From positions 62,001 through 126,000 of the forward strand of contig NW_026250435.1 of the NCBI RefSeq assembly GCF_024521635.1: a stretch of 64,000 nucleotides of DNA, in the 5' to 3' direction. Below are positions 8,356 through 36,946 of the stretch, piece by piece (positions within the stretch are counted from its first letter, which is position 1; each line of letters begins with the position of its first letter). This DNA is from Tricharina praecox (taxonomy: Eukaryota). A program made the translations under genes and the position numbers. Under the pieces are notes generated by a model. The model saw only the letters and a program-made list of their open reading frames with translations. It searched no databases and was not told the origin of the DNA.

Positions 8356-8524
8356 CTGGAAATTTACCAAAGTGAAAATAGAGCTAGAATCCAACAGCTG
8401 TATTGTCAGGTTTGTTGAGTACTTCAAAAAAAGGTACAAAGTAAATCTGCAAGCTTGAACTTCAACAGAAAATCCAGTGAACACTAATTTGATAGAACAA
8501 ACTGTAGATCGAAAAAATAGCGGC

Positions 8525-9580
8525 CAGCGACATCGTGGCCCGCTGCATTACGTCTCCCCCAAGGAAGAATCACCAAGAATGCACTAACCTTTCAAGGGAA
8601 ACCACAGTCAGAATCTCAGCTTTACGGATGGAGTCATTCCAAGAACTGGTCAACAAGGAAAGCCTCACTGTCACGGCTCGCGACGGAATGACGAAGGGAG
8701 GGTCGGTGCAAGGATCGAGAGAGTTGAGAGGCAGTGCACAGGCAGTGCACCGGCAGTGCAAGGATGAGTCGCAGAGGATTGGGGGCTGTGTGCAGGGAGC
8801 AGGGATAGCGCAGTAATGAGCCGCAGGGGATTGGGGCTGTGTGCTGGAAGGAGGGGTAGTGCGGCTGCGCAGGGTATGAGTCACGGAAGCGGGGTACTGG
8901 CAAGGTGGATTTCTCAGGGTCTGGCACACGCCCACGGTCACTGTCAGGTTGCGGGAAGAAGTGGAGGATTTTCTATATAAACGGGCCATTGCCCCTGTGT
9001 ATCTAGTTCTTCACGCAACAACTTATTAATTCAACCACTGTTACCTCTGTCCTTGCCTCGGCTGCCGTCTGCGCCGTAGTCCTTGTCCCTGCCTCTGTTC
9101 TCAGTTGCCGTCTGCACTGAGCCCTGCCTCACCTTGTCCCCTGAACCCGTCTTGCCTCTACCGAACCCAGAACCCTATCCCCAGCCCGGCTTCGCTACCT
9201 GGAGCCCTGCCCGACCGTGCCGTTACACTCACGATCTTCAACACCACGCTTGCTAGGGTCAATGGCGCACTGCAGGGAAACAAGGACCCCACGGCGCATA
9301 TTCCTCACGGATACCACCAGTTCCTACCGCTGCTCTCTGAAGCCCTTGCCCAGAACCTGCCCCCGCACCGACACTACGGCCATAAGATTCCACTCAAGGA
9401 GGGATTTATGCCCCCATACGGACCACTGTATTCACTCTCGAAAACGGAACTCATCGCACTGAAAGAATGGCTTGACGACAACCTCAGCAAAGGTTTCATC
9501 TGTGCCTCTTCCTCTCCAGCAGCATCGCCAATCCTGTTTGTCAAAAAATTGGACGGCTCCCTACGCCTGTGTGTGGATTA
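8525..9580 (+). mobile_element. Ty3/Gypsy family A pol fragment (PR-RT linker to start of RT), interrupted by a solo LTR
   Basis: Near-identical to the reverse complement of 18107-18490 and 21021-21490. Encodes [43 protein letters not shown]. Confidence 0.9.
8669..9227 (+). mobile_element. Solo LTR, family A (559 bp), TSD CTCAC
   Basis: TGTCACGG...CCGTTACA ends; CTCAC at 8664-8668 and 9228-9232; the empty site is seen in the pol copies near 18350 and 21370; TATATAAA near 8974. Confidence 0.95.
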
Positions 9581-9646
9581 TGTCACGGCTCGCGACGGAA
9601 TGGCGAAGGGAGGGTCGGTGCAAGGACCGAGAGAGTTGGGAGGCAG
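9581..9646 (+). mobile_element. First 66 bp of another family A LTR, inserted in RT and cut off by an LTR-C insertion
   Basis: TGTCACGGCTCGCGACGGAATG.. matches 8669 onward. Confidence 0.9.
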
Positions 9647-10039
9647 TGTGAGACTGGAACGATTATGGTCGTCGGAGTCAATTGATAGAATAAAATAAAG
9701 ATGAAAATAGATAGTATTCTTTCTTTCACAAACGGAATAATATTAAGGGGTAGTGTTGATGGTTTTCTGGTTGCTGATTCTGATGATGAATCTTTCGCCG
9801 TGTCGTCGGAAGTCTATATAGTTGGGTGATTTGGTCGAGTCACGTGCCAGCCGTTGCCGTAGCTTGTTGCCGGATGGAAACCCTGGCGTGAAATCTCTGC
9901 ACTTGGTGCGAAGACTTTCTCCGCCATGTCATCAGAGTCGCCGTAAGCCTTCAGGATAGTTTATACAAACTAGGCAGGTATGGCGCACCAATCCTTACCC
10001 GAGCATAGTCCGGTTTCAGCTATCTCTTCGCTGGGCAAC
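9647..10039 (-). mobile_element. LTR fragment, family C (related to B), truncated by the B LTR
   Basis: Starts tgtgagactgg and shares gtcgtcggagtc, gatagaataaaa and aacggaataat.ttaaggg blocks with LTR-B, then diverges. Confidence 0.75.
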
Positions 10040-10872
10040 TGTGAGACTGGGACGGGTTTGTGTCGTCGGAATCTATAGTAAAGTCGAGGATAGAATAAAA
10101 GTCAGGGATTTCGATAATTCACAACGGAATAATCTTAAGGGTGTTTCTTTGATGGTTTGTTCGGTGCGATGATTGTAGTTTGGTTCGGTTTGCCTGCTCG
10201 GTTTGACTTATAGTCGTTCCGATCCTCAGCACGTGATTCCTCTAGAGTGCGGCCTAACGTAGCTCCGTTGCTTCCTTTGCATCGGAGTTCCGCGGCCTAG
10301 CCTCGAGTCGTCGTCAGCTCTCTTCGGATAGTCTTCTCGACTAGGCAGGTGGTAAACACCACGCGCCCAAGATAGATCGGAGTTTCCAAGCAATTATCTC
10401 CCTCATGCGCCGGCAGAGTTCTTCGCTCGAAGTTGTCTGCCCCCATCGGTCGATGTTCGATTCTCTCGTCATAACAGTTTTTTCCTGGATCGGAGTTCCT
10501 ACTGCGGGGCCCTATGAACGGAGATCGCAAAGTCCTCTGGACTGTTATCCCGATCTCCCGTATCTCCGATCACTGTCTAGACTCTGGAATCCGTTTGCTC
10601 CCTCCTTCCTATCTTGTCCTTGATCGCTTCTAACTATCCTTTCGGCTCGCAACTCCATTCTAATCACCCGGACTATCTAATCACATCTCTTGCGACCGTC
10701 GTGACCTCCGATACCTATCGGGGTGTCACACCATCTCCCCTCCCACGAGGCTTCGGCCCGAAGCACCCAAGTCCTCGCCTTTATCCTAACTTGATAACTG
10801 TGGATGAAGTCCTCCAACCCCTTCATCCTACTACCTGCCCGAGTTCGAGAAAAACCACATGGGAAAAAACTC

Positions 10873-13800
10873 TTACTCATCTGTGAGCCGGTAGTCCCTC
10901 GGCGCATTGGGATTTTTGCGATGAAACTCGCGTAGCTTTTCCCGACCGCCTACTGAGAAGTTGTCGAATGGCTCGTTCGTCCAGTCCCGTCGTTCGGGGT
11001 AGGTGAGCCATTTGACGAGGTAGAGCACTCGTCGACCTTTCTTCGAGCTGCCCATAACCTCATCGACGTCGTATTCTTCGTTGCCTTCCACATCATCGGC
11101 CTCTCGTAAGATTTGAGAGGGATCCGGTGGTGCTCGGGTGCCGGCTCGGAACGGTTCAACGAGCGAGACGTGAAAGACATTATGAATCTTCCACTTCCTT
11201 GGCAGAGTGAGCTTGACAGCGAGCGGCGATACGATCTTCTCGATTTGGAAGGGACCATGGTTCTTGTGGTCCAACTTCCGCGAGGGTCGGCGGGTTTGAA
11301 TGTTCCGCCCATTGAGCATTACCAAGTCTCCTACTTGATAAGCCGGTGCCTCCTGACGATGTTGATCTGCATACTTGCGCATTCGTTCGCGCGTTCGTTC
11401 GAGGGTCTTGATGTTTTCCTCGTGGACTGTATGCATCCAGTGAGCGTAGACCCTGCTGGCGGGGTTGAGAGAATTTGCCGCAGCAGGGTTTGTCGCCGAC
11501 GGGTGGTATCCGAAATTCGCATAGAAGGGCGACATTCCGGTTGCCGATGTAACCGAGTTGTTGTAGGCAAGCTCAGCCATCGGTAGGAGATTCACCCAAT
11601 CGTTCTGTTCGTAGTTGACGAAGGAGCGGAGGTATGCTTCGATCGTCTGGTTGAGGCGTTCGGTTTGTCCATCCGTCTGTGGCTGGAACGCTGTTGACAT
11701 CCGGGGCCTAATGCCTAGCAGCCGGATGAATTCTTTCCATGTACCCGAGGTAAACCGTGAGTCTCGGTCCGACACTATGTCTGCTGGTAATCCGTGAAAG
11801 CGCCATATCTCGCGGGCAAAAATCTTCGCGAGATCCTCGGCTATCTTTCCATCCTTAGGTAGGGGGATGAAATGCGCCATCTTGGTGAAGCGGTCGACGA
11901 CCACCCATAGCTGGTCGCATCCGTTGGATTCCGGTAGGTCGGTAATGAAGTCCATGGCTATTGATTGCCATGGGGTGTATGGTAACTCGAGGGGATTGAG
12001 TAGTCCATACGGCTGGTGCCTTGTTGCTTTGTCCTTCTGACACTGCGCGCAACTCCGGACGAAGTCTATAATCTGCTCGTCCATCTTTGGCCACCAGAAA
12101 TTGCGTCGGATAAGTTCGATAGTCTTGTCCTGGCCCATATGCCCCGCGACTTTCGTATTGTGTTCCGACTCGAGGATGTGTCTGACGAGTTCCTTATCGT
12201 CTGGTACCCATAGCCTTTCTTTCCTATACAGGCACCCCTCTTCCATCCTCAAAATCCTGGCCTTTCGGCCCATCCTGCCGGAGTCCCTACTCTCGGCGGC
12301 CAGTTCCCAGGCCTTTCGGCCCTCCGACTCAGTGTCCGTCTGAGCCGCGTCCCCGTTCGTGTCCTTGATGCTGCTCAGAGCCTCCTGATACCCAGCATCT
12401 TCCTTTCCTGCCTTCCTGACCCAACCCAGAAATTCTTCATTCCACTTTGGCACGGGGATTGATTGTAGCCGAGTTGACGAAACCAGGAACACGGTGCTTT
12501 CGCCTCCGGTGCTGATTGATGAAACTCTCGAATCGTCGCCTGCAAAGTGTGATTTATGCAGGATCGTCGTAATCGGCTGATCTTCACCCCCCCCTTTTTC
12601 AGGGCGGTACTCCGGGCGCCTGGATAATGCGTCAGGCTTGCCGTTCTGGCTGCCGGGCCCGTAGTAGATTTTGAAGTCGATGCCAGCGAGTTCTTGTGCC
12701 CATCTCGCCTGCCGTCGATTGAGTACTTTCGTGGTTGTGAAGTACTCAAGGTTCTGGTGGTCGCTGTACACCTGGATCTGGTGTTTTGCTCCCTCAAGGT
12801 ATTGCCGCCAGCGTTTGAAAGAGTCTACTATCGCGAGTAGTTCCTTATCGTGAATCTCAAAGTTGATTTCGGCTGGGGTAAACTTTCTTGAGTGGAACGC
12901 AACTGGGTGTAACTTCCCCTCCTCTGTCCTTTGAGACAGGACCGCGCCCAACGCGAAGTCGGAAGCGTCGGATTCCACCACGACAGGTAATTCTGGGTTG
13001 AAGTGCCCGAGAATCGGTGCCGTGGTGAACCTAGACTTCAGCTCCTCGAAGGCCAGTTCCATCTCCGCTGTCCATCTCCAATCCTTCCCTTTTTCTTTTG
13101 TGCTCTCGGTCAAGGGTCTCGTGATCTTTGAGAAATCCTTGATGAAGCGCCTGTAAAAATTGGCGAACCCAAGAAAGGCTTGTACTTCCTTCAGGGACCG
13201 CGGCGCCTCCCACGAGAGCACAGATTCCACCTTGTCCTTAGCCATCTCAATTCCATCTTGGGATATCACGTATCCTAGGAACTCGACTCTCCTTGTCGAC
13301 CAGACACACTTCTCTGGTGAGATTGCCAACTTATTTTCTTCCAACCTCTTTAGTACCTCGATGACTATCTTGTCATGCTCCTCGTGCGTCTTAGCATAGA
13401 TGAGGAGGTCATCGATGTATGCGACCAGTCCCAGGTCCAACATATCCCGAAATATGTGGTTAATCATGTCCTGGAACGTCGCTGGAGCGTTGGTCAGCCC
13501 AAACGGCATGACCAAAAACTCAAACAGTCCGTATCGACAGCGGAAAGCCGTCTTCCACTCGTCACCTTCTTTGATGCGGATAAGGTGATAGCCATTCTTC
13601 AGATCAATCTTGGTGAAGACTTTCGCACCCCTGACTCGGTCTTGCAACTTTGCCATGATCGGGAGTGGGTAGCGATTGGCTACGGTAATCTTGTTGATAC
13701 CGCGATAGTCGACACACAATCGGAGACCCCTGCCGTGCGCCTTTGGTACAAATAATATCGGCGCCCCGGCTGGTGATTTGGATCTTCGAATCTTGCCTGT

Positions 13801-13908
13801 CTGGAGCATCTCCTTGAGCCACTCCCTGAGGGCCTCAAGTTCTTTCTCTGACAGGGCATAGATAGGACCCCATGGAGGAGTCTCTCCTTCCTTGAGATCG
13901 ATTGCGTG
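10873..13908 (-). CDS. pol: Pol of element B: RT, RNase H, integrase, chromodomain (separated from PR by the solo LTR)
   Basis: [62 protein letters not shown], and chromodomain EYDVDEV..YLVKW. Confidence 0.95.
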   Translation of the reverse strand, partial: HAIDLKEGETPPWGPIYALSEKELEALREWLKEMLQTGKIRRSKSPAGAPILFVPKAHGRGLRLCVDYRGINKITVANRYPLPIMAKLQDRVRGAKVFTKIDLKNGYHLIRIKEGDEWKTAFRCRYGLFEFLVMPFGLTNAPATFQDMINHIFRDMLDLGLVAYIDDLLIYAKTHEEHDKIVIEVLKRLEENKLAISPEKCVWSTRRVEFLGYVISQDGIEMAKDKVESVLSWEAPRSLKEVQAFLGFANFYRRFIKDFSKITRPLTESTKEKGKDWRWTAEMELAFEELKSRFTTAPILGHFNPELPVVVESDASDFALGAVLSQRTEEGKLHPVAFHSRKFTPAEINFEIHDKELLAIVDSFKRWRQYLEGAKHQIQVYSDHQNLEYFTTTKVLNRRQARWAQELAGIDFKIYYGPGSQNGKPDALSRRPEYRPEKGGGEDQPITTILHKSHFAGDDSRVSSISTGGESTVFLVSSTRLQSIPVPKWNEEFLGWVRKAGKEDAGYQEALSSIKDTNGDAAQTDTESEGRKAWELAAESRDSGRMGRKARILRMEEGCLYRKERLWVPDDKELVRHILESEHNTKVAGHMGQDKTIELIRRNFWWPKMDEQIIDFVRSCAQCQKDKATRHQPYGLLNPLELPYTPWQSIAMDFITDLPESNGCDQLWVVVDRFTKMAHFIPLPKDGKIAEDLAKIFAREIWRFHGLPADIVSDRDSRFTSGTWKEFIRLLGIRPRMSTAFQPQTDGQTERLNQTIEAYLRSFVNYEQNDWVNLLPMAELAYNNSVTSATGMSPFYANFGYHPSATNPAAANSLNPASRVYAHWMHTVHEENIKTLERTRERMRKYADQHRQEAPAYQVGDLVMLNGRNIQTRRPSRKLDHKNHGPFQIEKIVSPLAVKLTLPRKWKIHNVFHVSLVEPFRAGTRAPPDPSQILREADDVEGNEEYDVDEVMGSSKKGRRVLYLVKWLTYPERRDWTNEPFDNFSVGGREKLREFHRKNPNAPRDYRLTDE

Positions 13909-14597
13909 TGTGACACCCCGATAGGTATCGGAGGTCACGACGGTCGCAAGAGATGTGATTAGATAGTTCGGGTGATTAGAATAGAGTTGCGAGCCGAAAG
14001 GATAGTTAGAAGCGATCAAGGACAAGATAGGAAGGAGGGAGCAAACGGATTCCAGAGTCTAGACAGTGATCGGAGATGCGGGAGATCGGGATAACAGTCC
14101 AGAGGACTTTGAGATCTCCGATCATAGGGCCCCGCAGTAGGAGCTCCGATCCAGGAAAAACTGTTATGACGAGAGAATCGAACATCGACCGATGGGGGCA
14201 GACAACTTCGAGCGAAGAACTCTGCCGGCGCATGAGGGAGATAATTGCTCGGAAACTCCGATCTATCTTGGGCGCGTGGTGTTCACCACCTGCCTAGTCG
14301 AGAAGACTATCCGAAGAGAGCTGACGACGACTCAAGGCTAGGCCGCGGAACTCCGATGCAAAGGAAGCAACGGAGCTACGTTAGGCCGCACTCTAGAGGA
14401 ATCACGTGCTGAGGATCGGGACGACTATAAGTCGAACCGAGCGGGCAACCGAACAAAACTACAATCATCGCACCGAACAAACCATCGAACAAACACCCTT
14501 AAGATTATTCCGTTGTGAATTATCGAAATCCCTGACTTTTATTCTATCCTCGATTTTACTATAGACTCCGACGACACAAACCCGTCCCAGTCTCACA
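13909..14597 (+). mobile_element. Solo LTR, family B (689 bp), antisense inside pol of element B, TSD GCGTG
   Basis: TGTGACAC..GTCTCACA; GCGTG at 13904-13908 and 14598-14602; removal restores KSYDHAIDLKEGETPPWGPIY. Confidence 0.95.
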
Positions 14598-15376
14598 GCG
14601 TGGTCGTAGGACTTGTGGTCGGGAAGCTTATCGGCTGCTTCCTTGCTCATGATGTTGGCATATCGTCTGAACTTCTCCGGAAGCAGATTCATGGGTGGAT
14701 CTGATTCCGGGCCAGCTGAGACGTATCCAATAATGCGAGCCTCCGAATTGTGAATGACAGACGTGTCAAGTTCCATCGGAAAGCTGGTTGCTTGTTGCAA
14801 GGTGCATTGTTCCTTGCATCGGGTGCTGGTGAAGCGAATTTTCTGTGCTTCATTCTTCCACAACCCTGTCGGTTCATGCTTAGCCATCCACCAATACGGG
14901 AGGTAGGCATCGCAGTCGTCCAAGGGAGCCACTTCGAAGGTTTCGTTGGTGTAGTGGCTCCGGTGTTGAAGGAGCATCGGCATTGTATAATATGCCCCGG
15001 CTCCTTCCACTATGGTTCCGTGGAAGTCCTTGATTTCCACCGGCTTGGGTCGTTGAATGAGGGGCAACCCAAGTTCTCGTGCAAGGCTTCGTTTGATGAT
15101 CGGAATGGCACATCCTGTGTCAAGGAGTACTCGGATCCGTCGTCGCTTGTGCTCAGACCAGAGGAGCATCATTTCTATGATTGGTCGTGGTCCGCTGACA
15201 GGTTTTGGGGGCTCACACCCTGAGGCGCTCGGCGCGGTTGGACTCGTAGAAATAGGTTGGTCCGTTCGTCTTCGCTTATCTCTGGATCCGCTGTCGATAT
15301 CCTGAGGCCGTGGTCTCTTCGTTCCGCAAACATATACACTTGGCCGTCCAGTCTGCGGAGTGCTGGGGCCGCTCAA
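14598..15376 (-). CDS. pol: Aspartic protease part of pol, element B (-1 frame relative to gag)
   Basis: VLLDTGC catalytic motif; frame overlaps the gag stop at G GAT TTT TGA. Confidence 0.9.
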
Positions 15377-17376
15377 AAATCCTCCGGCTCACTCTCATTC
15401 CTTTCCCAGAATGGAGGGGCCTCCGTCATTGCTTCATCCTCCACCACAACCGCCGCAGCCTTGTGTTGCTTGGACCTCGGTCGAGTGGGTTCGGCATCCT
15501 GGGTGTCCCGCTTTCTCTTTGTCACGGATGACACCTTTGGACTCTCGGGGAGTTCGGTACCCGCGACTGTTTTTCTGGCGTAGCATTGGAAGGTTCGGTG
15601 GCCGTCTCGTCCGCAACGCCAACAGTCGCACTTGGATCCTTTGTGGGCATCGATCTCCTTCTGGGGAACCCCTACCAGAGCCTCCTTTGCTCCTGCGTAG
15701 ATGTCCCCTTCCCTTGTCCTTCCCTTCCTGACTCCTGTTGCTTCCTTGGCCTTTCGGCCCTCCGGGGACTCCCCGCTTTCCTTGCGGCCCCCGGGGTCTC
15801 TTCCCTTTCCTTGGCCCTGCTGGCCGTTGCCAGGTCCCTTCCGGTCGCCGCCGGAACCCTGGCTACCCGATCCCCCTTTCCTCATTGCCCTTGCCTTTTT
15901 CAGCGCGTCCCGTCGTTCCACATGGTTGCCAGCCCTGAGCACCGTTTCCAGCAAGTCTTCATCATCTTCGTAGGGTTCGGTGTGCTGGTTGAAGCACATA
16001 TCAACGATGTCGGTAGTCATGGCCTGGTTGACTATGTCTTGTAGCGGTTCGCCGGTGGCGCGAGCGATCATGTTGAGCGATCGGAAGGAGGTCATGTAAG
16101 CCTGAATGTCTTCTTTGTATTCGAGGGCCCACATCCTTCTTAATGCGTTCGCTCCTTCCTGCGTGTCGCGGTACGCCTCCTTGAGTGCCTCTTGGTACGC
16201 CTGCCAGGTATCTTCCAAGTGTAGCTCCCTCAGGCTTTTTCGACGGGCCTGATGCCATTCTGCCGCTGTCCCTTCCAGTCGGGATCCCACCCACGCTATC
16301 TTCTGCTGCTCGTTTGTCTCTGGGTGGAACTCAAGATATTCCTTAACTGAGTCCCACCATGGACGGAAGGCTGTTCTTTGCTTGCCATCGAACGGCTTGG
16401 GCTCTTTCATTTTAAGCTTGATGGCCCTCGGGTTCGATGCGGAGACGGCAGCAGCGATGATCCGAGCGAAGCGACTCTCTTCGTCTTCGTCGTCTTCTCT
16501 TGGTAGCGGAGCGTGTCGGTGACGGGGCGGCGAACGACGCGGCAAGGGGATGGAATCGTCATCATCCGATGGTTCCTCATCCGAGGGATCACCTCCAAGG
16601 TTAGTCACCGGACGTCTTGGGGGTGGAGGAGGAGGGGACATTCCTGCACCTGCCGGAGTTTCCCTTGTTGCTGACCTTTCTGCCCGCGATCCTCCTCTTG
16701 GGGTAGTGTTTACCCACTCCGGGGCCTTTTCCTTCGCCTTCCCTGTCCTTACCTCTACAGCCTTCAATTTTTTCTCTGCTCGAGCGATTTTTTCTTTGAT
16801 TCGCTGTTGCTCCTTGTAGAGGTATTCTGCCTTCTCTTCCTGTTTCCCTGCCCAAATTTCCACGTTGCGGTTGTACACCGCTTGCTCCCTGCGTTGTTCG
16901 ACTTGCGCCGTTTCGAGGAACACGATGGCGTCTTGTAGCCGAGCGTTTGCGACGCTTTGCAACTCGCGGTTGTCTTCGTCTTTCTGGTTACGTTCTCGAA
17001 TGACTGCCCATACGTCGCTGCTCAGGGCGTGCGTCGCGTTCGCTACCGTTGACAGCTCGGTTCGAAGCCATTCTGTATTCATTTCGGCATTGAGAGCGTA
17101 GAGGTTGTACACATACTTGACCCCATCGCAGAGTTGTTCGTAGTTCCTTCTGATTTCCTGCATTCGGGAGTCCTCTTCGTTGAACTTCTGATCGCATGCT
17201 TGGTAAAGCTGGCGCAGGTCTCTTTGTGCCGTTTGGTATTGGTGGTTCATCAGCCTGAGCCAGGCTGCCGGGTTTCGTACTTCGACGGTTTCGGATGCTT
17301 GCGGGATGCTAACGAGCGCATTGCTCAGGGTCTGAGGAAGTTCGAGGCGGAGCATGTCGAGGTTTGAGGAGGACAT
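15373..17376 (-). CDS. gag: Gag of element B (667 aa)
   Basis: EPKPFDGK capsid-like motif, CWRCGRDGHRTFQC zinc knuckle, lies just inside the 5' LTR. Confidence 0.92.
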   Translation of the reverse strand: MSSSNLDMLRLELPQTLSNALVSIPQASETVEVRNPAAWLRLMNHQYQTAQRDLRQLYQACDQKFNEEDSRMQEIRRNYEQLCDGVKYVYNLYALNAEMNTEWLRTELSTVANATHALSSDVWAVIRERNQKDEDNRELQSVANARLQDAIVFLETAQVEQRREQAVYNRNVEIWAGKQEEKAEYLYKEQQRIKEKIARAEKKLKAVEVRTGKAKEKAPEWVNTTPRGGSRAERSATRETPAGAGMSPPPPPPRRPVTNLGGDPSDEEPSDDDDSIPLPRRSPPRHRHAPLPREDDEDEESRFARIIAAAVSASNPRAIKLKMKEPKPFDGKQRTAFRPWWDSVKEYLEFHPETNEQQKIAWVGSRLEGTAAEWHQARRKSLRELHLEDTWQAYQEALKEAYRDTQEGANALRRMWALEYKEDIQAYMTSFRSLNMIARATGEPLQDIVNQAMTTDIVDMCFNQHTEPYEDDEDLLETVLRAGNHVERRDALKKARAMRKGGSGSQGSGGDRKGPGNGQQGQGKGRDPGGRKESGESPEGRKAKEATGVRKGRTREGDIYAGAKEALVGVPQKEIDAHKGSKCDCWRCGRDGHRTFQCYARKTVAGTELPESPKVSSVTKRKRDTQDAEPTRPRSKQHKAAAVVVEDEAMTEAPPFWERNESEPEDF

Positions 17377-18106
17377 TTTCGATAGAAATCGGTGACTGTA
17401 ACCTTAAGATTATAGTGTGAGACTGGGACGGGTTTGTGTCGTCGGAGTCTATAGTAAAATCGAGGATAGAATAAAAGTCAGGGATTTCGATAATTCACAA
17501 CGGAATAATCTTAAGGGTGTTTCTTTGATGGTTTGTTCGGTGCGATGATTGTAGTTTGGTTCGGTTTGCCTGCTCGGTTTGACTTATAGTCGTTCCGATC
17601 CTCAGCACGTGATTCCTCTAGAGTGCGGCCTAACGTAGCTCCGTTGCTTCCTTTGCATCGGAGTTCCGCGGCCTAGCCTCGAGTCGTCGTCAGCTCTCTT
17701 CGGATAGTCTTCTCGACTAGGCAGGTGGTAAACACCACGCGCCCAAGATAGATCGGAGTTTCCGAGCAATTATCTCCCTCATGCGCCGGCAGAGTTCTTC
17801 GCTCGAAGTTGTCTGCCCCCATCGGTCGATGTTCGATTCTCTCGTCATAACAGTTTTTTCCTGGATCGGAGTTCCTACTGCGGGGCCCTATGATCGGAGA
17901 TCTCAAAGTCCTCTGGACTGTTATCCCGATCTCCCGCATCTCCGATCACTGTCTAGACTCTGGAATCCGTTTGCTCCCTCCTTCCTATCTTGTCCTTGAT
18001 CGCTTCTAACTATCCTTTCGGCTCGCAACTCTATTCTAATCACCCGAACTATCTAATCACATCTCTTGCGACCGTCGTGACCTCCGATACCTATCGGGGT
18101 GTCACA

Positions 18107-19128
18107 TCAAGCCATTCCTTCAATGCGACAAGCTCCGTTTTCGAAAGTGAGTACAGTGGTCCGTATGGGGGCGTAAATCCCTCCTTGAGTGGGATCTTAT
18201 GGTCGTAGTGTCGGTGCGGTGGCAAGTTCTGGGCGAGGGCTTCAGAGAACAGCGGTAGGAACTCGTGATATTCGTGAGGGATATGTGCCGTGGGGTCCTT
18301 GTTTCCTTCCAGTGCGCTGTTGACTTCGGCAAGAGTGGTGTTGAAAATCGTAAGGCTTTCCTTGCTGACCAGTTCTTGGAATAACTCCATCCGTAAGGCT
18401 GAGATTCTGACTGTGGTTTCCCTTGAAAGGTTAGTGCATTCTTGGTGATTCATCCTTGGGGGAGACGTAATGCAGCGGGCCACGATGTCGCCGGCGCCCG
18501 CGCTTACCGCTGGCTCTTCCTGAGCTGCTTTTGACGCGAGAGCATAGGTAGATACGTCAGGTGGGTCGGTGGTGATTCCATGTGCAACTGTGGGCACTGC
18601 ATTGCAGTTGGCTGTACAGTATTGGGAGCCAAAGGTGAGGGTTCGGGAGCTGAACCGGATGGCCACATCGTGGAGGTCCATCCAGGGGATTCCGAGTACA
18701 ACCGGGTAGTGGCCTAGTTTGGTGACAAACATAGGGATTTCTTCGTGGTGTTCCTGTATGGACAGGGTGGTGGTGGCAACATGTGTGATGTCGCCTGACT
18801 CGATGGGACGGCCATCGATGACTTCGAGGGTGCGCGGGGATTTCAGGGGTACGAGGGGTAGGTGGTGATGGCGGGCGAAGTCTTTGTCTACAAATGCAAT
18901 TCCGGTTGCCCCACAGTCGATCAGCGCATGCGTGGCAATGGTTTTGTCACCAAACGAAAGGTTACACAATACAACAAGATGTTTTCCTTCCATTGATGAT
19001 TCCTCCACAACCATTCCTGACACTGAGAGACTAGACAAACGAAAAACAGGGGACATAGGAGACAAAGACTTATCCCGGGTACGACCAACAACAGTGCCAT
19101 CAAGCGGTTGTTGGTCTAGGCTTTTCCC
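18107..19128 (-). CDS. pol: Protease and PR-RT linker of A1 (truncated pol, -1 frame)
   Basis: HALIDCGATG, VVLGIPWM; slippery GGGAAAA at 19128-19122. Confidence 0.88.
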
Positions 19129-20312
19129 GACTGCTGGGAGGTCTCGCCGCAATCCTGGTTGCAGTTGTGATAGGTGTGAGCCGGGGTGGTGTTGGTCGGC
19201 TGAGTTGTCTCCAGCCGGGCAACGGCTGCTCGGAACGGATTTCGGTTCTTGTTGGGGCAGTGCCTCGCCATGTGGCCACTTCCTCCACAGTACAGACAGC
19301 GGCCTTCGCGGAGCCGAGCGGCACGCTCTTGATCTGAGATCCTGCGGCTGTTGGCACTCAAGTCCATAGCTCCGGGGGCCGTTCCTGTGGCAGTGGTCGT
19401 CACGGGCATGGTGTTCTGGGTGGTGTGCCTGAGTGGCGCCGTGGGTTGTGGGGCGCTACTCTGCCGAGGGGGGTTGATGGTACGGCGTCCCTCACGAAGT
19501 TGGAGGGCACGCAGCTCGGAGTCGAGGCGTTGGCAGAGGGCCACAAACCCGTCGTAGTTGAGACCCTGAGTACGGCCCACAAGTTGCCGGTGGAGTTCGA
19601 TGGATACTCCTTTTCGCAGTGCGTCAGGTTTCGCATGCTCGTCCCAATTGAGCTTGGAGACGAGCATCTGGAATTCCGCAAAGTAGGAGGTGAACTCCTT
19701 ATTGCCTTGTTTCAGGTGGTGCAGCTTGGCTCGAGCGGTGGCCGCTGGGTCGGGGTCACCAAACGCATTGTTCAGGAGTGTGATTATCGCATCAGCATCA
19801 GTGAGGGTGATGTTGTGATTCTCGATGTATGGCAGGATCTGGGCTTGGGGGCGGCCTTCCAAGCGGTTGAAGGCGTAGGCCATTCGGAGTGCTGGAGTGG
19901 GGAAACGGGCTGGGTCGCTGTATAGCTTGAGTCGAAGTTGCGCAACGAACCCTTCGAGTTTGTCGCGTGTTCCGTCGAACATGGCGGGCTCTGGGACACA
20001 CTCAGCGCGGCTTTGAGGGTGGGCTTCGACGGTGGCGAGGCGGTTGGCGATCCGGCGGGCATCGGCAAGTTGTTCTTCGAGGTCGTCGAATCGCCAGGTT
20101 GGTATCGCTGTCGGGGACAGGGTGATTGCGCGGGCAAGGATTCTGAATTCGTTGTACAACCCCATCAGGGTTGCATCGTCGGCGGGTGCATCGTGATTCA
20201 CGATGATTTCGAGTTGTTCGTAGATGGCGGCGGGAATTTCTCGGTAGAAGGGGGGAGCCACCGGTACTTCGTCCTGCTGGGGGACGTCGAGTACCTGAGT
20301 GTTAGTGGCCAT
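19116..20312 (-). CDS. gag: Gag of A1 (398 aa)
   Basis: PAMFDGTR, HLKQG, PGAMDL, CLYCGGSGHMARHC zinc knuckle. Confidence 0.92.
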   Translation of the reverse strand: MATNTQVLDVPQQDEVPVAPPFYREIPAAIYEQLEIIVNHDAPADDATLMGLYNEFRILARAITLSPTAIPTWRFDDLEEQLADARRIANRLATVEAHPQSRAECVPEPAMFDGTRDKLEGFVAQLRLKLYSDPARFPTPALRMAYAFNRLEGRPQAQILPYIENHNITLTDADAIITLLNNAFGDPDPAATARAKLHHLKQGNKEFTSYFAEFQMLVSKLNWDEHAKPDALRKGVSIELHRQLVGRTQGLNYDGFVALCQRLDSELRALQLREGRRTINPPRQSSAPQPTAPLRHTTQNTMPVTTTATGTAPGAMDLSANSRRISDQERAARLREGRCLYCGGSGHMARHCPNKNRNPFRAAVARLETTQPTNTTPAHTYHNCNQDCGETSQQSGKA

Positions 20313-21667
20313 GGTAGTCCGCTAGGTGGAGAGATGGGGGACGCAACAAAGTGTAACGGCACGGTCGGGCAAGGCTCCAGGTAGCGAAGTCGGGCTGGGG
20401 ATCGAGTTCTGGGTTCGGTAGGGGCAAGACGGGTACAGGAGACAAGGTGAGGCAGGGCTCAGTGCAGACGGCAACTGAGAACAGAGGCAGGGACAAGGAC
20501 TACGGCGCAGACGGCAGCCGAGGCAAGGACAGAGGTAACAGTGATTGAATTAACAAGTTGTTGCGTGAAGAACTAAATACAGAGGGGCAACGGCCCGTTT
20601 ATATAGAAAATCCTCCACTTCTTCCCGCAACCTGACAATGACCGTGGGCGTGTGCCAGACCCTGAGAAATCCACCTTGCCAGTACCCCACTTCCGTGACT
20701 CACACCCTGCGCAGCCGCACTACCCCTGCTTCCTGCACACAGCCCCAATATCCTGCGACTCATTACTGCGCTATCCCTGCTCCCTGCACACAGCCCCAAA
20801 TCCTCTGCGACTCATCCTTGCACTGCCGGTGCACTGCCTCTGCACTGCCCCCCAATTCTCCCGATCCTTGTGCCGACCCTCCCTTCGTCATTCCGTCGTG
20901 AGCCGTGACACCGCGAATATCCAGGGTGGTGAAGTATTTTGCCCCGGATATCCGCATCAGAGTTTCTTGGAGAAGTGGGAGTGGGTACCTGTTCTCGATT
21001 GTTCCTTCGTTCAGGCCCCTGTAATCCACACACAGGCGTAGGGAGCCATCCGATTTCTTGACAAACAGGATTGGCGATGCTGCTGGAGAGGAAGAGGCAC
21101 GGATGAAACCTTTGCTGAGGTTTTCGTCAAGCCATTCCTTCAGTGCAACAAGCTCCGTTTTCGAAAGTGAGTACAGTGGTCCGTATGGGGGCGTAAATCC
21201 CTCCTTGAGTGGAATATTATGGCCGTAGTGTCGGTGCGGGGGCAAGTTCTGAGCAAGGGCTTCAGAGAACAGCGGTAGGAATCCGTGGTATCCGTGAGGG
21301 ATATGTGCCGTGGGGTCCTTGTTTCCTTCCAGTGCGCTGTTGACCTCGGCAAGCGTGGTGTTGAAAATCATGAGGCTTTCCTTGTTGACCAGTTCTTGGA
21401 AAGACTCCATCTGTAAGGCTGAAATTCTGACTGTGCTTTCCCTTGAAAGGTTAGTGCATTCTTGGTGATTCTTCCTTGGGGGAGACGTAATGTAGCGGGC
21501 CACGATGTCGCCGGCGCCCGCGCTTACCGCTGGCTCTTGCTGAGCTGCTTTTGACGCGAGAGCATAGGTAGATACGTCAGGTGGGTCGGTGGTGATTCCA
21601 TGTGCAACTGTGGGTACCGCATTGCAGTTGGCTGTGCAGTATTGGGAGCTGAAGGTGAGGGTCTGGG

Positions 21668-22076
21668 TGTAATAAAGTACACTGGGAAAGTACTATACCA
21701 CTCGACCAAAAGGTATTTTGATGGCTGATGGCCATCATCCCAGTAGCTACTTAAGGCTAGGATTTCTGAACTGTGACAGTATCCCCTCTTTAGGGGCTTA
21801 CTCCAGGAAGCCTTCAAGTAGTTAACCCCCAATGAGTGATAATTCATGATAAGAATCATGAACCGTCACTCACTGTAAGCCATGCAATTCCTGAACAACA
21901 CTGCAGCAGAGGAATGTAACTGTTCGCAGTGGGAATTGAACTCATGACCTTTGCAGTCATCAAACTGTAATAAAGTACACTGGGAAAGTACTATACCACT
22001 CGACCAAAAGGTATTTTGATGGCTGATGGCCATCATCCCAGTAGCTACTTAAGGCCAGGAGTTCTGAACTGTGACA
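21668..22076 (-). mobile_element. TRIM / miniature LTR retroelement (family D), 409 bp: 111-bp LTRs 21668-21778 and 21966-22076, 187-bp non-coding interior, TSD CTGGG
   Basis: LTRs differ at 2 positions, TG..CA ends; CTGGG at 21663-21667 and 22077-22081; empty site visible in A1 near 18645; PPT AAAGAGGGGATAC at 21791-21779. Confidence 0.95.
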
Positions 22077-24252
22077 CTGGGAGCTGAACCGGATGGCCAC
22101 ACCGTGGAGGTCCATCCAGGGGATTCTGAGTACAACGGGGTAGTGGCCTAGTTTGGTGACAAACATAGGGATTTCCTTCTGGTGTTCCTGTATGGACAGG
22201 GTGGTGGTGGCAACATGTGTGATGTCACCTGACTCGATGGGACGGCCATCGATGACTTCGAGACTTCGCGGGGATTTCAGGGGTACGAGGGGTAGGTGGT
22301 GATGGCGGGCGAAGTCTTTGTCTACAAATGCAATTCTGGTTGCCCCACAATCGATCAGCGCATGCGTGGCAATGATTTTGTCACCAAACGAAAGGTTACA
22401 CAATACAACAAGATGTTTTCCTTCCATTGATGATTCTTCCACAACCATTCCTGACACTGAGAGACTAGACAAACAAAAAATAGGGGACATAGGAGACAAA
22501 GACTTATCCTGGGTACGACCAACAACAGTGCCATCAAGCGGTTGTTGGTTTAGGCTTTTCCCGACTGCTGGGAGGTCTCGCCGCAATCCTGGTTGCAGTT
22601 GTGATAGGTGTGAGTCGGGGCAACGGCTGCTCGGAACGGATTTCGGTTCTTGTTGGGGCAGTGCCTGGCCATGTGGCCACTTCCCCCACAGTACAGGCAG
22701 CGGCCTTCGCGGAGCCGGGCAACACGCTCTTGGTCTGGGATCCTGCGGCTATTGGCACTCAAGCCCATAGCTCCGGGGGCCGTTCCTGTGGCAGTGGTCG
22801 TCGCGGGCATGGTGTTGTGGGTGGTGTGCCTGGGCGGCGCCGTGGGGTGTGGGGCGCTACTCTGCCAAGGGGGGTTGGTGGTGCGGCGTCCCTCACGGAG
22901 TTGGAGGGCACGCAGCTCGGAGTCAAGGCGTTGACAGAGGGCCACAGACTCATCGTAGTTGAGGCCCTGAGTACGGCCCACAGGTTGCCGGTGGAGTTCG
23001 ATGGATACTCCTTCTCGCAGCGCGTCAAGTTTCGCATGCTCGTCCCAATTGAGCTTGGAGACAAGCATCTGGAATTCCGCAAAGTAGGAGGTGAACTCCT
23101 TATTGCCTTGTTTCAGGTGGTGTAGCTTGGCTCGAGCTGTGGCCGCTGGGTCAGGGTCACCAAATGCGTTGTTCAGGAGTGTGATGATCGCATCAGCGTC
23201 GGTGAGGGTGATGTTGTGATTCTCGATGTACGGCAGGATCTGGGCTTGGGCGCGGCCTTCCAAGCGGTTGAAGGCATAGGCCATTCAGAGTGCTGGAGTT
23301 GGGAAACGGGCTGGGCCGCTGTACAGCTTGAGTGAAAGTTGCGCAACGAACCCTTCCAGTTTCTCGCGTGTTCTGTCGAACATGGCTGGGTCTGGGACAC
23401 GCTCAGCACGGCTTTGAGGTTGGGTTTCGACGGTGGCGAGGCGGTTGGCGATGCGGCGGGCGTCAGCAAGTTGTTCTTCGAGGTCGTCGAATCGCCAGGT
23501 TGGTACGGCTATTGGGGACAGGGTGATTGCGCGGGCGAGGATTCTGAATTCGTTGTACAACCCCATCAGGGTTGCATCATGGGCGGGTGCATCATGATTA
23601 ACGATGATTTCGAGTTGTTCGTAGATGGCGGCGGCAATTTCTCGGTAGAAGGTGGGTGCCACTGGTATTTCGTCCTGCTGGGGGACGTTGGGTAACTGAG
23701 TGTTGGTGGCCATGGTAGTTCGCTAGGTGGAGAGATAGGGGACGCAACAAAGTGTAACGGCACGGTCGGGCAAGGCTCCAGGTAGCGAAGTCGGGCTGGG
23801 GACCGGGTTCTGGGTTCGGCAGAGGCAAGACGGGTTCAGGGGACAAGGTGAGGCAGGGCTCAGTGCAGACGGCAACTGAGAACAGAGGCAGGGACAAGGA
23901 CTACGGCGCAGACGGCAGCCGAGGCAAGGACAGAGGTAACAGTGATTGAATTAACAAGTTGTTGCGTGAAGAACTAAATACAGAGGGGCAACGGCCCGTT
24001 TATATAGAAAATCCTCCACTTCTTCCCGCAACCTGACAATGACCGTGGGCGTGTGCCAGACCCTGAGAAATCCACCTTGCCAGTACCTCACTTCCGTGAC
24101 CCATACCCTGCGCAGCCGCACTACCCCTGCTTCCTGCACACAGCCCCAATCTCCTGCGACTCATTACTGCGCTATCCCTGCTCCCTGCACACAGCCCCTA
24201 ATCCTCTGCAACTCATCCTTGCACTGCCGGTGCATTGCCTGTGCACTGCCTC

Positions 24253-24363
24253 TGTCACAGTTCAGAAATCCTGGCCTTAAGTAGCTACTGGGATGATGGC
24301 CATCAGCCATCAAAATACCTTTTGGTCGAGTGGTATAGTACTTTCCCAGTGTACTTTATTACA
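24253..24363 (+). mobile_element. Solo LTR of the TRIM (111 bp), TSD GCCTC, inside the A2 5' LTR
   Basis: Reverse complement of the TRIM LTRs; GCCTC at 24248-24252 and 24364-24368. Confidence 0.95.
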
Positions 24364-24427
24364 GCCTCCACACTCTCCCGATCCTTGCGCCGACCCTCCC
24401 TTCGTCATTCTGTCGCGAGCCCTGACA

Positions 24428-24854
24428 TGCGCTGCCTGTGCACAGCCTCCCAACTCTCCTGATCCTTGCGCTGACCCTCTCTTCGTCATTCCGTCGCGAG
24501 TCGTGACACAGAGGGGCGTCGGCCCGTTTATATAGGAAATCCTTCACTCCTTCCTGCAACCTGACAATAACCGTGGGCGTGTGCTAGACCCTGAGAAATC
24601 CTCCTCGCCGATACCCGCTCCGGTGACTCAAACCCTGCGCAGCCGCGCTACCCTCGTTACCGGCACACAGCCCCAATCCCCTATGGCTCATTCCCGCATT
24701 GCCGCCCGCGCTGCCCCCGCGCTACCTTCCGACCCCTGTTCTGACTCGTCCTCGAACGTTCCGACCTGAGCGGTGACACTATTCTGATCACCCGAACTAT
24801 CTAATCACATCTCTTGCGTGTGTCGTGACCTCCGATACCTATCGGGGTGTCACA
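24428..24854 (-). mobile_element. Stack of three older LTR 5'-end remnants: family A (24428-24508), diverged A-like (24509-24778), family B (24779-24854)
   Basis: Each ends in gtgaca or gtcaca on the + strand and aligns by eye to the intact LTRs in this window. Confidence 0.85.
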
Positions 24855-36874: not shown

Positions 36875-36946
36875 GGTTCTATAGTGTAATGGTTAGCACG
36901 TCGGATTCTGATTCCGGCAATCCCGGTTCGACTCCGGGTAGGACCT
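36875..36946 (+). tRNA. tRNA-Gln(CTG), intronless
   Basis: GGTTCTA/TAGGACC acceptor stem, TAGTGTAATGG A box, anticodon loop TTCTGAT, GGTTCGACTCC T loop, followed by a T7 terminator. Confidence 0.97.

Follow-up and report, generated by a model that had tools for sequence, protein, structure and literature searches.

A 409-bp non-coding LTR retrotransposon that probably primes reverse transcription with the first bases of its own transcript

The window, that is, the whole stretch of 64,000 nucleotides analyzed here, contains at positions 21668 to 22076 a genuine TRIM, a non-coding LTR retrotransposon of 409 bp whose sense strand is the minus strand. Judging from its sequence, we consider it quite probable that the first 11 bases of the element's transcript serve as the primer for its own reverse transcription. 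TRIMs have direct terminal repeats of about 100 to 250 bp with TG..CA ends and a total length of less than 1 kb. The element in the window has direct terminal repeats with these ends, stays below 1 kb, and carries a PBS and a polypurine tract (PPT) in a non-coding interior; it is flanked by a TSD, and there is evidence of its transposition. Its features are as follows.

21966 to 22076, minus strand: 5' LTR, 111 bp, TG..CA ends, identical to the 3' LTR at 109 of 111 positions (98%)
21668 to 21778, minus strand: 3' LTR, also 111 bp with TG..CA ends
22077 to 22081, minus strand: TSD copy upstream of the element, 5 bp, CCCAG on the sense strand
21663 to 21667, minus strand: downstream TSD copy, CCCAG directly after the 3' LTR
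21782 to 21791, minus strand: polypurine tract AAAGAGGGGA, separated from the 3' LTR by 3 nt
21954 to 21964, minus strand: PBS TTTGATGACTG, 1 nt past the LTR; at 21957 only the window copy has A, in contrast to G in the family
22015 to 22025, minus strand: putative self-primer CAGCCATCAAA, LTR positions 52 to 62, the presumed first 11 nt of the transcript and start of R
21996 to 22006, minus strand: A-box-like TGGTCGAGTGG, LTR positions 71 to 81; its 3' part doubles as the 5' arm of a predicted U5 hairpin
21921 to 21949, minus strand: tRNA-3'-half-like string, including the B-box-like GAGTTCAATTCC, i.e., GAGTTCAATTC(C), at 21943-21932
22006 to 22009, minus strand: TTTT run, LTR positions 68 to 71, its final T being the first base of the A box; 3' LTR copy at 21711-21708
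22024 to 22035, minus strand: perfect 12-bp palindrome TGATGGCCATCA, LTR positions 42 to 53, ending at the putative transcript start
21830 to 21875, minus strand: predicted long internal RNA hairpin in the non-coding interior
18640 to 18647 (approximately 18642 to 18645), minus strand: paralogous empty site in copy A of a duplicated gypsy fragment, with a single copy of the target pentamer

The first-pass annotation had placed a TRIM with 111-bp LTRs at this location. The TSD, the PPT, and the empty site confirm that it is real, recently mobile, and non-coding. It was recently inserted into another retrotransposon (gypsy), and joints of the empty site (21662 to 22079) were also found in the public runs X2, X3, and X5. 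The interior comprises 187 nt, and the only reading frames that cross it enter from the host gypsy element. RNA folding of the interior yielded -67.1 kcal/mol (z = -4.68), a value equaled by none of 200 shuffles. Its long hairpin, to which Rfam returned weak miRNA-like matches, may possibly act as a packaging or dimerisation signal. The plus strand was considered as the sense strand and rejected, since the right LTR is not preceded by a purine tract and nothing resembling a PBS follows the left one.

The TRIM family is young and multicopy, and its solo LTRs outnumber the full copies. Part of the family was contained in 20 of the 22 public runs listed. LTR depth was about 10-fold that of the interior (approximately 825 to 1118 versus 40 to 94 in X2, and 1436 to 2034 versus 123 to 252 in X5), and the flanking loose ends in the runs were many and mutually unlike, with an agreement of 0.46 to 0.57. 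One solo LTR of the same family lies in the window.

24253 to 24363, plus strand: solo LTR, same family, with the TSD GCCTC at 24248-24252 and 24364-24368 and its own empty site near 20849

Neither the genome contigs nor the viral contigs that were searched gave any match to a 22-mer taken from the LTR. With a 20-mer of the interior, a single locus was retrieved from metagenome contigs and dismissed as an unrelated, AT-rich chance match. When the TRIM was compared with the window by BLAST, its own LTR copies were the only matches, and no autonomous element sharing the LTR or the interior was found there, a point against the explanation proposed below.

Self-priming is suggested first of all by the PBS. 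In the window copy it is complementary at 10 of 11 positions to the LTR stretch whose first base, position 52, precedes the A box by 19 nt, as had been annotated. A perfect PBS, TTTGATGGCTG, had been predicted for other copies. To compare copies, we used contigs of the public runs X2, X3, X5, and X14, which cannot show RNA starts or strand. As predicted, position 21957 carries the complement of G in the other copies, with 118.3 of 121.3 depth in X2, 78.4 of 78.4 in X3, 366.6 of 366.6 in X5, and 3.26 of 3.26 in X14. The last run is an RNA library represented by one 243-nt contig, which marks presence only and not a transcript end. Since nearly all other copies compared have G at 21957, the family PBS matches the LTR at 11 of 11 positions. 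When the LTR was shuffled with its dinucleotides preserved, a complement of the PBS at 10 or more of 11 positions arose in 141 of 20000 cases and one at all 11 in only 5 of 20000. Apart from the family G, neither of the two 11-nt partners varies among the copy differences listed, which were taken from the best-supported rows, 30 further rows lying beyond them. In the predicted minimum free energy (MFE) fold of an RNA started at LTR position 52, the 5' end pairs with the PBS and the U5 hairpin adjoins this duplex. It should be noted that this fold was no better than those of shuffled sequences (z = -1.08, equaled by 25 of 200), which counts against self-priming. According to passages in PMC4600332, PMC5341516, and PMC6934838, such priming has been demonstrated for Tf1/Tf2 and inferred for Tj1, Maggy, Skippy, Cft-1, Boty, Grasshopper, and Afut1.

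The same junction can be read as that of an ordinary tRNA-primed TRIM, in which the functional PBS would lie 6 nt past the LTR and the complementarity to the LTR would be incidental. From that position the family consensus reads TGGCTGCAAAGG, a possible match for a tRNA 3' end and as such a point against self-priming; it is the family G at 21957 that creates the TGG. Priming by tRNA is usual for LTR elements and for most Helenus TRIMs (PMC10886601, section 3.6), and the tandem GCCATCA repeat carried by the LTR, together with the palindrome, eases short matches to TGATGGC-like strings. However, an 11/11 match to the LTR seldom arises among shuffles. By our own estimate, a TGG would turn up in the first 8 or so positions in about 1 of 8 cases. 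Position 21952, two bases past the primer/PBS duplex and within the putative tRNA-type PBS, differs in 193.6 of 261.1 depth in X5 and also in X14. In addition, if the sequence is read as a tRNA, position 61 would be A instead of the invariant C, which in our reading limits the pairing to about 12 nt at most, and a tRNA starting with U1 and having G as discriminator would be required. Priming of this kind implies a host tRNA that ends in ...CTTTGCAG(CCA) or an internal stretch complementary to GTTTGATGGCTGCAAAGG; the only tRNA of the window (Gln) does not fit the PBS. The chromovirus in the neighborhood is self-complementary and has no tRNA-type PBS. Taken together, we regard tRNA priming as very unlikely.

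This neighbor provides a second instance of the layout that we propose for the TRIM.

10040 to 18106, minus strand: resident Ty3/gypsy chromovirus with LTRs of about 690 bp, 4 kb from the TRIM; proposed type of helper

The chromovirus has RT, RNase H, integrase, SH3_Tf2-1, and chromo domains. At its PBS position, ATAATCTTAAGG (17413-17402) is complementary at 12 of 12 positions to its own LTR at 17516-17505. This complementarity was equaled by 1 of 3000 shuffles, and the corresponding fold had a z value of -2.99. The arrangement is the same as that of the TRIM self-primer. The two elements are only slightly similar in their PPT and LTR ends, as judged by eye. As the resident copy lacks a matching TSD and contains an inverted LTR copy, it is not an intact helper.

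We consider it fairly likely that an autonomous LTR element, most probably a self-priming chromovirus, supplies the proteins that copy the TRIM in trans, in the following manner. The RNA would begin in the 5' LTR at or beside LTR position 52 and end in the 3' LTR. Its first 11 nt (CAGCCAUCAAA) would pair back onto the PBS just past the LTR, helper RNase H would cleave after nucleotide 11, and the freed 3' end would prime minus-strand DNA, as in elements of the Tf1/sushi type. The plus strand would be primed from the PPT. Helper integrase would insert the DNA and thereby generate the 5-bp duplication, and LTR-LTR recombination would give rise to solo LTRs. The RNA start, the helper, and the cleavage are those steps of the cycle that we infer. 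Ordinary LTR-driven or read-through transcription by Pol II is taken as the default. For a Pol II promoter, a U3 of only 51 nt without an evident TATA box is thin, and we count this against the proposed explanation.

The alternative put forward at first reading is transcription by Pol III. TFIIIC would bind the A box in R/U5 and the B box past the PBS, and Pol III would start on the first base of the self-primer and make the transposition template. The boxes had been annotated at 22006-21996 and 21943-21933 with a gap of 52 nt, and these coordinates hold; from start to start the distance is 63 nt. They fit the positions T8 R9 G10 Y11..A14 R15 Y16 G18 G19 and G53 T54 T55 C56 R57 A58 N Y60 C61, which we take to be invariant in tRNAs. 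In yeast, the A box starts at +8, initiation occurs 10 to 12 nt upstream of +1, and A-B distances range from 31 to 93 nt, as stated in a section of PMC5356446. This puts the yeast start 18 to 20 nt upstream of the A box, in agreement with the 19 nt that separate the self-primer start from the A box in the TRIM. Searching for TRGYNNARYGG and GTTCRANYC at 30 to 75 nt from each other, patterns that were relaxed after the sequence had been seen, returned two pairs in the window, the true tRNA-Gln and the TRIM junction, versus a mean of 0.025 in 40 block-shuffled windows. Textbook box patterns with at most one mismatch each gave no pair in the window, not even that of the real tRNA-Gln. Relaxing the patterns after the fact weakens the Pol III reading, and because many windows were scanned at first reading, coincidences are to be expected.

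In the neighboring self-priming chromovirus, the primer is followed by no A box, and thus the A box of the TRIM is not a general by-product of self-priming. In other copies of the family, the A-box variants TGGTCAAGTGG and TGGCCGAGTGG either hit the N position or shift towards the consensus. Both observations favor Pol III, and there is precedent in Cassandra, transcribed from a Pol III promoter, and in fungal Helenus TRIMs with tRNA-like promoters (PMC10886601). The sense strand was also found to be free of runs of five or more T, as annotated, the TTTT at LTR positions 68 to 71 of both LTRs being its only T runs of at least four. Four T residues are described as a weak terminator in S. cerevisiae in part of bioRxiv 10.1101/2021.08.27.457903. 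In the TRIM, however, the TTTT would occupy +17 to +20 of the proposed transcript and overlap the A box, and T4 runs of just this kind follow the tRNA-like part of many Helenus LTRs in Data S1 (PMC10886601); this counts against Pol III. A further expectation of the first-pass annotation, restoration of the T stem GTGGG...CCCAC in the family consensus, was not observed: no change at 21945 or 21942 appears among the copy differences listed, and the two reversions are not the majority state of the family. None of the 13 listed variable sites of the interior falls within 21927-21951, where about 1.7 would be expected by our own arithmetic; since the family is young, conservation of the boxes says little. 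On balance, we consider Pol III transcription of the template unlikely.

A tRNA-like fold was supported by no tRNA model of either Rfam or ARAGORN, which counts against the Pol III reading. With default settings, ARAGORN detected no tRNA in the TRIM and one (Gln) in the window. The Rfam tRNA model RF00005 had no match in the TRIM at E values of up to 10, including a scan of 131 nt. At a relaxed setting (-ps80), ARAGORN proposed a tRNA-Asn at 22006-21920 that uses the A box as acceptor stem; it was rejected, the same setting giving 53 matches per 64 kb. Sub-threshold Rfam matches to snoR72 (20.5 bits versus a gathering threshold of 43), miRNA families, ssnA, and RyhB were likewise rejected as chance. 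Local alignment did not support the possibility that the T-arm-like piece of the interior is a diverged copy of the LTR start, where CAGTTCAGAAATCCTGG is likewise read (score 15, reached by 454 of 1000 shuffles).

The pieces resembling tRNA may instead be inert relics of a captured tRNA gene or tRNA-derived SINE, or they may have arisen by chance. We give this an even chance, and it is compatible with self-priming and copying in trans. The missing cloverleaf agrees with it, as does a local alignment to the tRNA-Gln of the window, which scored 12, a value attained in 861 of 1000 shuffles. T-arm-like motifs of the GATCACGGGTTCAATCCC type also occur in the interiors of Helenus elements of the LTR-1_PTrit lineage; these interiors derive from an internal portion of a Pol II-transcribed Copia element (PMC10886601, section 3.6). 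Kojima moreover proposes insertion of a SINE into a TRIM as the origin of sequences of this kind (PMC10886601). On the other hand, if both boxes descend from a single tRNA-like unit, only they have kept consensus quality, the 52 nt between them now being U5 hairpin and PBS, which hints at selection, and the register of the boxes relative to the self-primer start is right for Pol III. If the boxes were functional in this way, the element would be a split-promoter, self-primed TRIMp3 in which one internal promoter sets both the transcript and the primer. We rate that combination as distinctly unlikely. The A-box-like TGGTCGAGTGG is present again in the 3' LTR (21708-21698). As the box pair is formed only at the junction of 5' LTR and interior, solo LTRs and 3' LTRs would be silent under a split promoter.

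A self-primed TRIM of 409 bp would imply that the cis requirements of the mechanism fit into about 120 nt and can be parasitized in trans, and it would offer a very small substrate for mechanism studies. If the boxes recruit Pol III, TRIMp3 elements would extend to a probable ascomycete, with a split promoter whose geometry fixes the primer; such an LTR parasite would dispense with both a Pol II promoter and a host tRNA. For annotation, solo LTRs that each have an A-box-like motif, and elements with a tRNA-like 3' half, could mislead tRNA or SINE finders run at loose thresholds.

Among known systems, tRNA-derived SINEs (SINE2) share with the TRIM a short, non-coding body and A and B boxes near the presumed 5' end of the transcript. 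SINEs, however, lack LTRs, a PBS, and a PPT and rely on target-primed reverse transcription by LINEs, whereas the TRIM has the hallmarks of LTR elements and a 5-bp TSD. If the Pol III reading is adopted, Cassandra is similar in being a TRIM with an internal Pol III promoter. Its transcripts have a terminal repeat of only 18 bp (PMC10886601, introduction). If the TRIM transcript began at position 52 and stopped at the leaky TTTT, it could, by our own inference, have a Cassandra-like R of about 20 nt. The Cassandra promoter differs in being of the 5S type (type 1), lying wholly within the LTR, and occurring in plants; Rfam scans returned no 5S match in the TRIM.

Helenus/TRIMp3 elements are TRIMs with a tRNA-derived Pol III promoter, of which 113 families are known from Pucciniales and others from Agaricomycetes (Kojima 2024, PMC10886601). 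Their publication runs counter to the remark in the first-pass annotation that no described fungal example was known to it; the split A/B layout and its link to a self-primer are absent from that paper. Pol III transcription of Helenus was itself proposed and stated as unproven (PMC10886601). Like the TRIM, Helenus elements are fungal, of similar size (311 to 1263 bp), and have 5-bp TSDs, many solo LTRs, and tRNA-type boxes. In contrast, both boxes of Helenus sit within each LTR in one uninterrupted tRNA-like unit that precedes a T run. The TRIM lacks such tRNA-derived sequence with both boxes inside the LTR: its LTR holds the A box alone, the B box being located past the PBS. In Helenus, the PBS fits a tRNA anticodon loop or 3' end and was not found to be complementary to the tRNA-like part of the LTR (PMC10886601), whereas the TRIM PBS pairs with its own LTR and does not begin with the GGTTATGAGCCC or TGGTAGC types of Helenus Data S1. 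Apart from a T-arm 12-mer that occurs 7 times, none of four probe strings from the TRIM LTR or junction is present in Data S1 (PMC10886601). The likely helpers differ as well, being Copia elements for Helenus and a chromovirus for the TRIM.

The Tf1/sushi group resembles the TRIM in having, after the 5' LTR, a PBS complementary to an 11-nt LTR stretch at the would-be 5' end of the transcript. A U5 hairpin predicted beside the PBS, a fungal host, and an LTR edge without a tRNA-type PBS are also common to both. Tf1/sushi elements, however, are autonomous, 5 to 8 kb long, and transcribed by Pol II, whereas the TRIM is non-coding, has a very short U3, and carries A and B boxes that flank its PBS. 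Self-priming has so far been tied to full-length elements of the Tf1/sushi type, from which the 409-bp non-coding design differs.

The TRIM, a 409-bp LTR retroelement, was found to carry two nearly identical LTRs (2 of 111 positions differ) around a non-coding interior of 187 nt, across which the only long frames are those entering from the surrounding host sequence.

Features of the TRIM and its surroundings (window positions)
22076-21668, minus strand: TRIM, 409 bp, two direct repeats of 111 bp each
22076-21966, minus strand: 5' LTR, 111 bp, TG start, CA end
21778-21668, minus strand: 3' LTR, 111 bp, TG start, CA end
22081-22077 and 21667-21663, minus strand: TSD CCCAG on both flanks of the TRIM
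21791-21782, minus strand: purine run AAAGAGGGGA, 3 nt upstream of the 3' LTR
18107-20910: gypsy copy A, gag-protease fragment, different gypsy family from the chromovirus
21022-24854: gypsy copy B, gag-protease fragment, matched to copy A over 21127-21662 and 22079-24427
24253-24363, plus strand: solo LTR (third LTR copy), own duplication GCCTC, empty site in copy A
10040-18106, minus strand: Ty3/gypsy chromovirus, LTRs of ~690 bp
36875-36946, plus strand: normal tRNA-Gln(CTG) gene; the window has no other tRNA, and the A/B-box scan took this one as its positive control

The TRIM is located in the protease region of a tandemly duplicated Ty3/gypsy fragment, the two copies of which share ~93-94% identity. 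Copy A is uninterrupted at this site (...CTCCCGAACCC...), while copy B reads ...CTCCCAG[element]CCCAGACCC...; copy A is an empty site here, in line with a 5-bp duplication upon insertion. Element-free joints (21662 -> 22079) were also present in contigs of three public sequencing runs, at a depth of 5837 in run X3. The gypsy nest further contains inverted rearranged pieces at 8523-9648 and tandem repeats of 43-67 bp around 20464-20824 and 23865-24692, and 24781-24854 is similar to the initial 74 nt of the chromovirus LTR.

Family copies were judged from public runs. Parts of the TRIM were present in 20 of the 22 runs listed, representing 11 studies and including soil metagenomes and runs of a coded organism, organism A. 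Contigs of four runs were placed on 21468-22276 at a likeness of at least 85% (X2, 557; X3, 22; X5, 197; X14, 1). Depth was approximately 10-fold higher over the LTR than over the interior (~825-1118 versus 40-94 in X2; ~1436-2034 versus 123-252 in X5), and loose contig ends at the LTR borders were mutually unlike (agreement 0.46-0.57), which together point to numerous sites of insertion and numerous solo LTRs. It is nearly certain that the TRIM is real, young, and multicopy. Contigs spanning the interior, which show no strand, ends, or expression, were found in X14 (metatranscriptome; 243 nt, depth 3.26) and X3 (guessed to be RNA; 327 nt, depth 78.4). The organism A runs X1, X2, X7, and X10 comprise 1-4 million letters each in contigs of ~40 nt on average, with very high word depth over the gypsy fragment and LTR, a pattern that would fit small-RNA or similar transposon-enriched libraries.

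Self-priming was assessed from the primer binding site (PBS), an 11-mer at 21964-21954 that begins 1 nt past the LTR and can pair, at 10 of its 11 bases, with LTR positions 52-62, the putative first 11 nt of the transcript. The sole mismatch in the window copy is the A at 21957.

Base at position 21957 in public runs
X2: G depth 118.3 of 121.3, 5 contigs with G
X3: G depth 78.4 of 78.4, 1 contig with G
X5: G depth 366.6 of 366.6, 13 contigs with G
X14: G depth 3.26 of 3.26, 1 contig with G

Since nearly all other copies carry G here, the family PBS is a perfect LTR complement (11/11), as the first-pass annotation had predicted. Among 20,000 dinucleotide-preserving LTR shuffles, with six offsets allowed, a match of at least 10/11 arose in 141 and one of 11/11 in 5. 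Neither end of the complementarity extends past these 11 nt, and the self-primer of Tf1 is 11 nt long. No further change in either partner (PBS or LTR 52-62) was among the differences listed for public-run contigs, although rare variants may occur in 30 rows beyond that listing; position 21952, two bases past the duplex, differs in 193.6 of 261.1 of X5 depth and also in X14. In the minimum free energy fold predicted for RNA starting at LTR position 52, the 5' end is set on the PBS and a U5 hairpin forms (GUGGUAUAGUAC/GUACUUUAUUAC), the overall fold energy being ordinary (z -1.08). In the main rival reading, the PBS region (family consensus TGGCTGCAAAGG) is tRNA-type instead of self-primed. Judged by the sequence, we consider Tf1-type self-priming of the TRIM probable. 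Tf1 and Tf2 have been demonstrated to use this mode, which has also been inferred in Tj1 and in several chromoviruses of ascomycetes (PMC4600332, PMC5341516, and PMC6934838).

The neighboring chromovirus encodes gag, protease, RT, RNase H, integrase, a Tf2-1-type SH3 domain, and a chromodomain, and its LTRs are 98.7% identical. Two nucleotides past its 5' LTR, ATAATCTTAAGG (17413-17402) is a 12/12 complement of its LTR at 17516-17505, a match reached in 1 of 3000 shuffles, and the predicted RNA fold pairs self-primer and PBS (z -2.99). This pairing and fold suggest that self-priming is the local norm around the TRIM. This chromovirus copy is damaged, as its flanks lack a matching 5-bp TSD (CTTGA versus GTTGC), and its own LTR recurs in inverted orientation at 13908-14598, between the protease and RT regions. 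By eye, the TRIM resembles it weakly in a GAGGGGA purine tract, TGT.ACA ends, and CCCAGT near the LTR end; beyond these short likenesses, no other sequence similarity between the two was found. Given the weak similarity and the damaged copy, we can only infer that an autonomous chromovirus of this self-priming type would supply proteins to the TRIM.

The first-pass annotation had also proposed transcription by Pol III from split tRNA-type boxes. The coordinates it gave for both boxes, the PBS, and the LTR complement were all exact, and the longest T run on the sense strand is 4, in line with its claim of no T5. We take TGGTCGAGTGG and GAGTTCAATTCC to match the A- and B-box positions of tRNA genes. 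Using patterns picked after the sequence was seen (TRGYNNARYGG and GTTCRANYC, spaced 30-75 nt), two A/B pairs were detected in the window, tRNA-Gln (36882 and 36926) and the TRIM LTR/interior junction, compared with a mean of 0.025 in 40 block-shuffled windows. Strict textbook patterns with up to one mismatch yielded no pair in the window, missing the real tRNA-Gln as well. The self-primer starts 19 nt before the A box, and the box starts are 63 nt apart. In yeast, the A box starts at +8, transcription begins 10-12 nt before +1, and A-B distances span 31-93 nt (PMC5356446), so that the geometry is as originally described. Both the boxes and their register exceed what chance would give.

That Pol III makes the TRIM template nevertheless appears unlikely to us, despite this register and an existing precedent. 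No tRNA was found in the TRIM by ARAGORN at default settings or by the Rfam tRNA model at E up to 10, even with a 131-nt search, and alignment to tRNA-Gln was not significant. A consensus T stem was not seen; the two A-to-G reversions expected to perfect it are absent among the family differences listed. Moreover, the proposed transcript has TTTT at +17 to +20, the last T of which is also the first base of the A box. In Saccharomyces cerevisiae, T5 is the minimal terminator, efficient termination takes T6, and T4 is weak but enhanceable (bioRxiv 10.1101/2021.08.27.457903); the run is therefore a caution and no refutation. In the predicted U5 hairpin, one arm is made up of the 3' half of the A box, a role that may offer an alternative reason for its retention.

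Several other structures were observed. A relaxed-threshold ARAGORN match in the TRIM was dismissed as noise. The LTR start TGTCACAGTTCAGAAATCCTGG (22076-22053, LTR positions 1-24) resembles a tRNA T arm whose loop has gained 2 nt, so that the TRIM holds two pieces like a T arm and one like a D arm; local alignment of interior and LTR was not significant. A C/D-box snoRNA likeness at 21901-21956 on the minus strand, with a terminal stem CUGCA...UGCAG around the B-box region, scored below threshold (snoR72, 20.5 bits versus a gathering score of 43) and was taken as chance. The interior folds far better than shuffles (z -4.68) and includes a near-perfect long hairpin (21830-21875, minus strand) that may be a packaging signal, dimerization signal, or small-RNA source. 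A perfect 12-bp palindrome, TGATGGCCATCA, at 22024-22035 and 21726-21737, ends each time at the putative transcript start, adjoins a tandem GCCATCA GCCATCA, and could be a factor binding site. At LTR position 50, T often replaces A in other family copies from public-run contigs.

The first-pass annotation knew of no described fungal example, but TRIMs with a tRNA-type Pol III promoter are not new in fungi, since Helenus comprises TRIMs with tRNA-derived sequence in the LTR (Kojima 2024, PMC10886601). It includes 113 families found in rust fungi, further ones occur in Agaricus, Coprinopsis, and Amylostereum, and a "TRIMp3" class was proposed for Helenus, Cassandra, and Ajax. In fungi, Helenus copies show TSDs of 5 bp, abundant solo LTRs, and probable Copia helpers. 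Their PBSs match tRNA anticodon loops or 3' ends, and complementarity between PBS and the tRNA-like LTR part was sought by the author and not found. Three LTR/junction strings of our TRIM were absent from Data S1, whereas a 12-mer of the T-arm motif occurred 7 times there, partly in interiors of the LTR-1_PTrit lineage, which the paper traces to the internal region of an autonomous Copia element (PMC10886601). LTR elements other than this TRIM thus also carry T-arm-like motifs toward the PBS side, and such motifs need not be promoters. Literature searches, judged mostly by titles and the opening lines of abstracts, listed no paper on a self-priming TRIM or on an LTR element whose A/B promoter is split. 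In contrast to Helenus, the TRIM described here keeps only the A box in the LTR, with the B box past the PBS; its PBS pairs with the LTR; and its host looks like an ascomycete, the closest Atlas clusters of the host XPG_I_2 protein being Ascomycota (score 0.95). It is a variation on known kinds: a TRIM, probable Tf1-type self-priming, and TRIMp3-like motifs.
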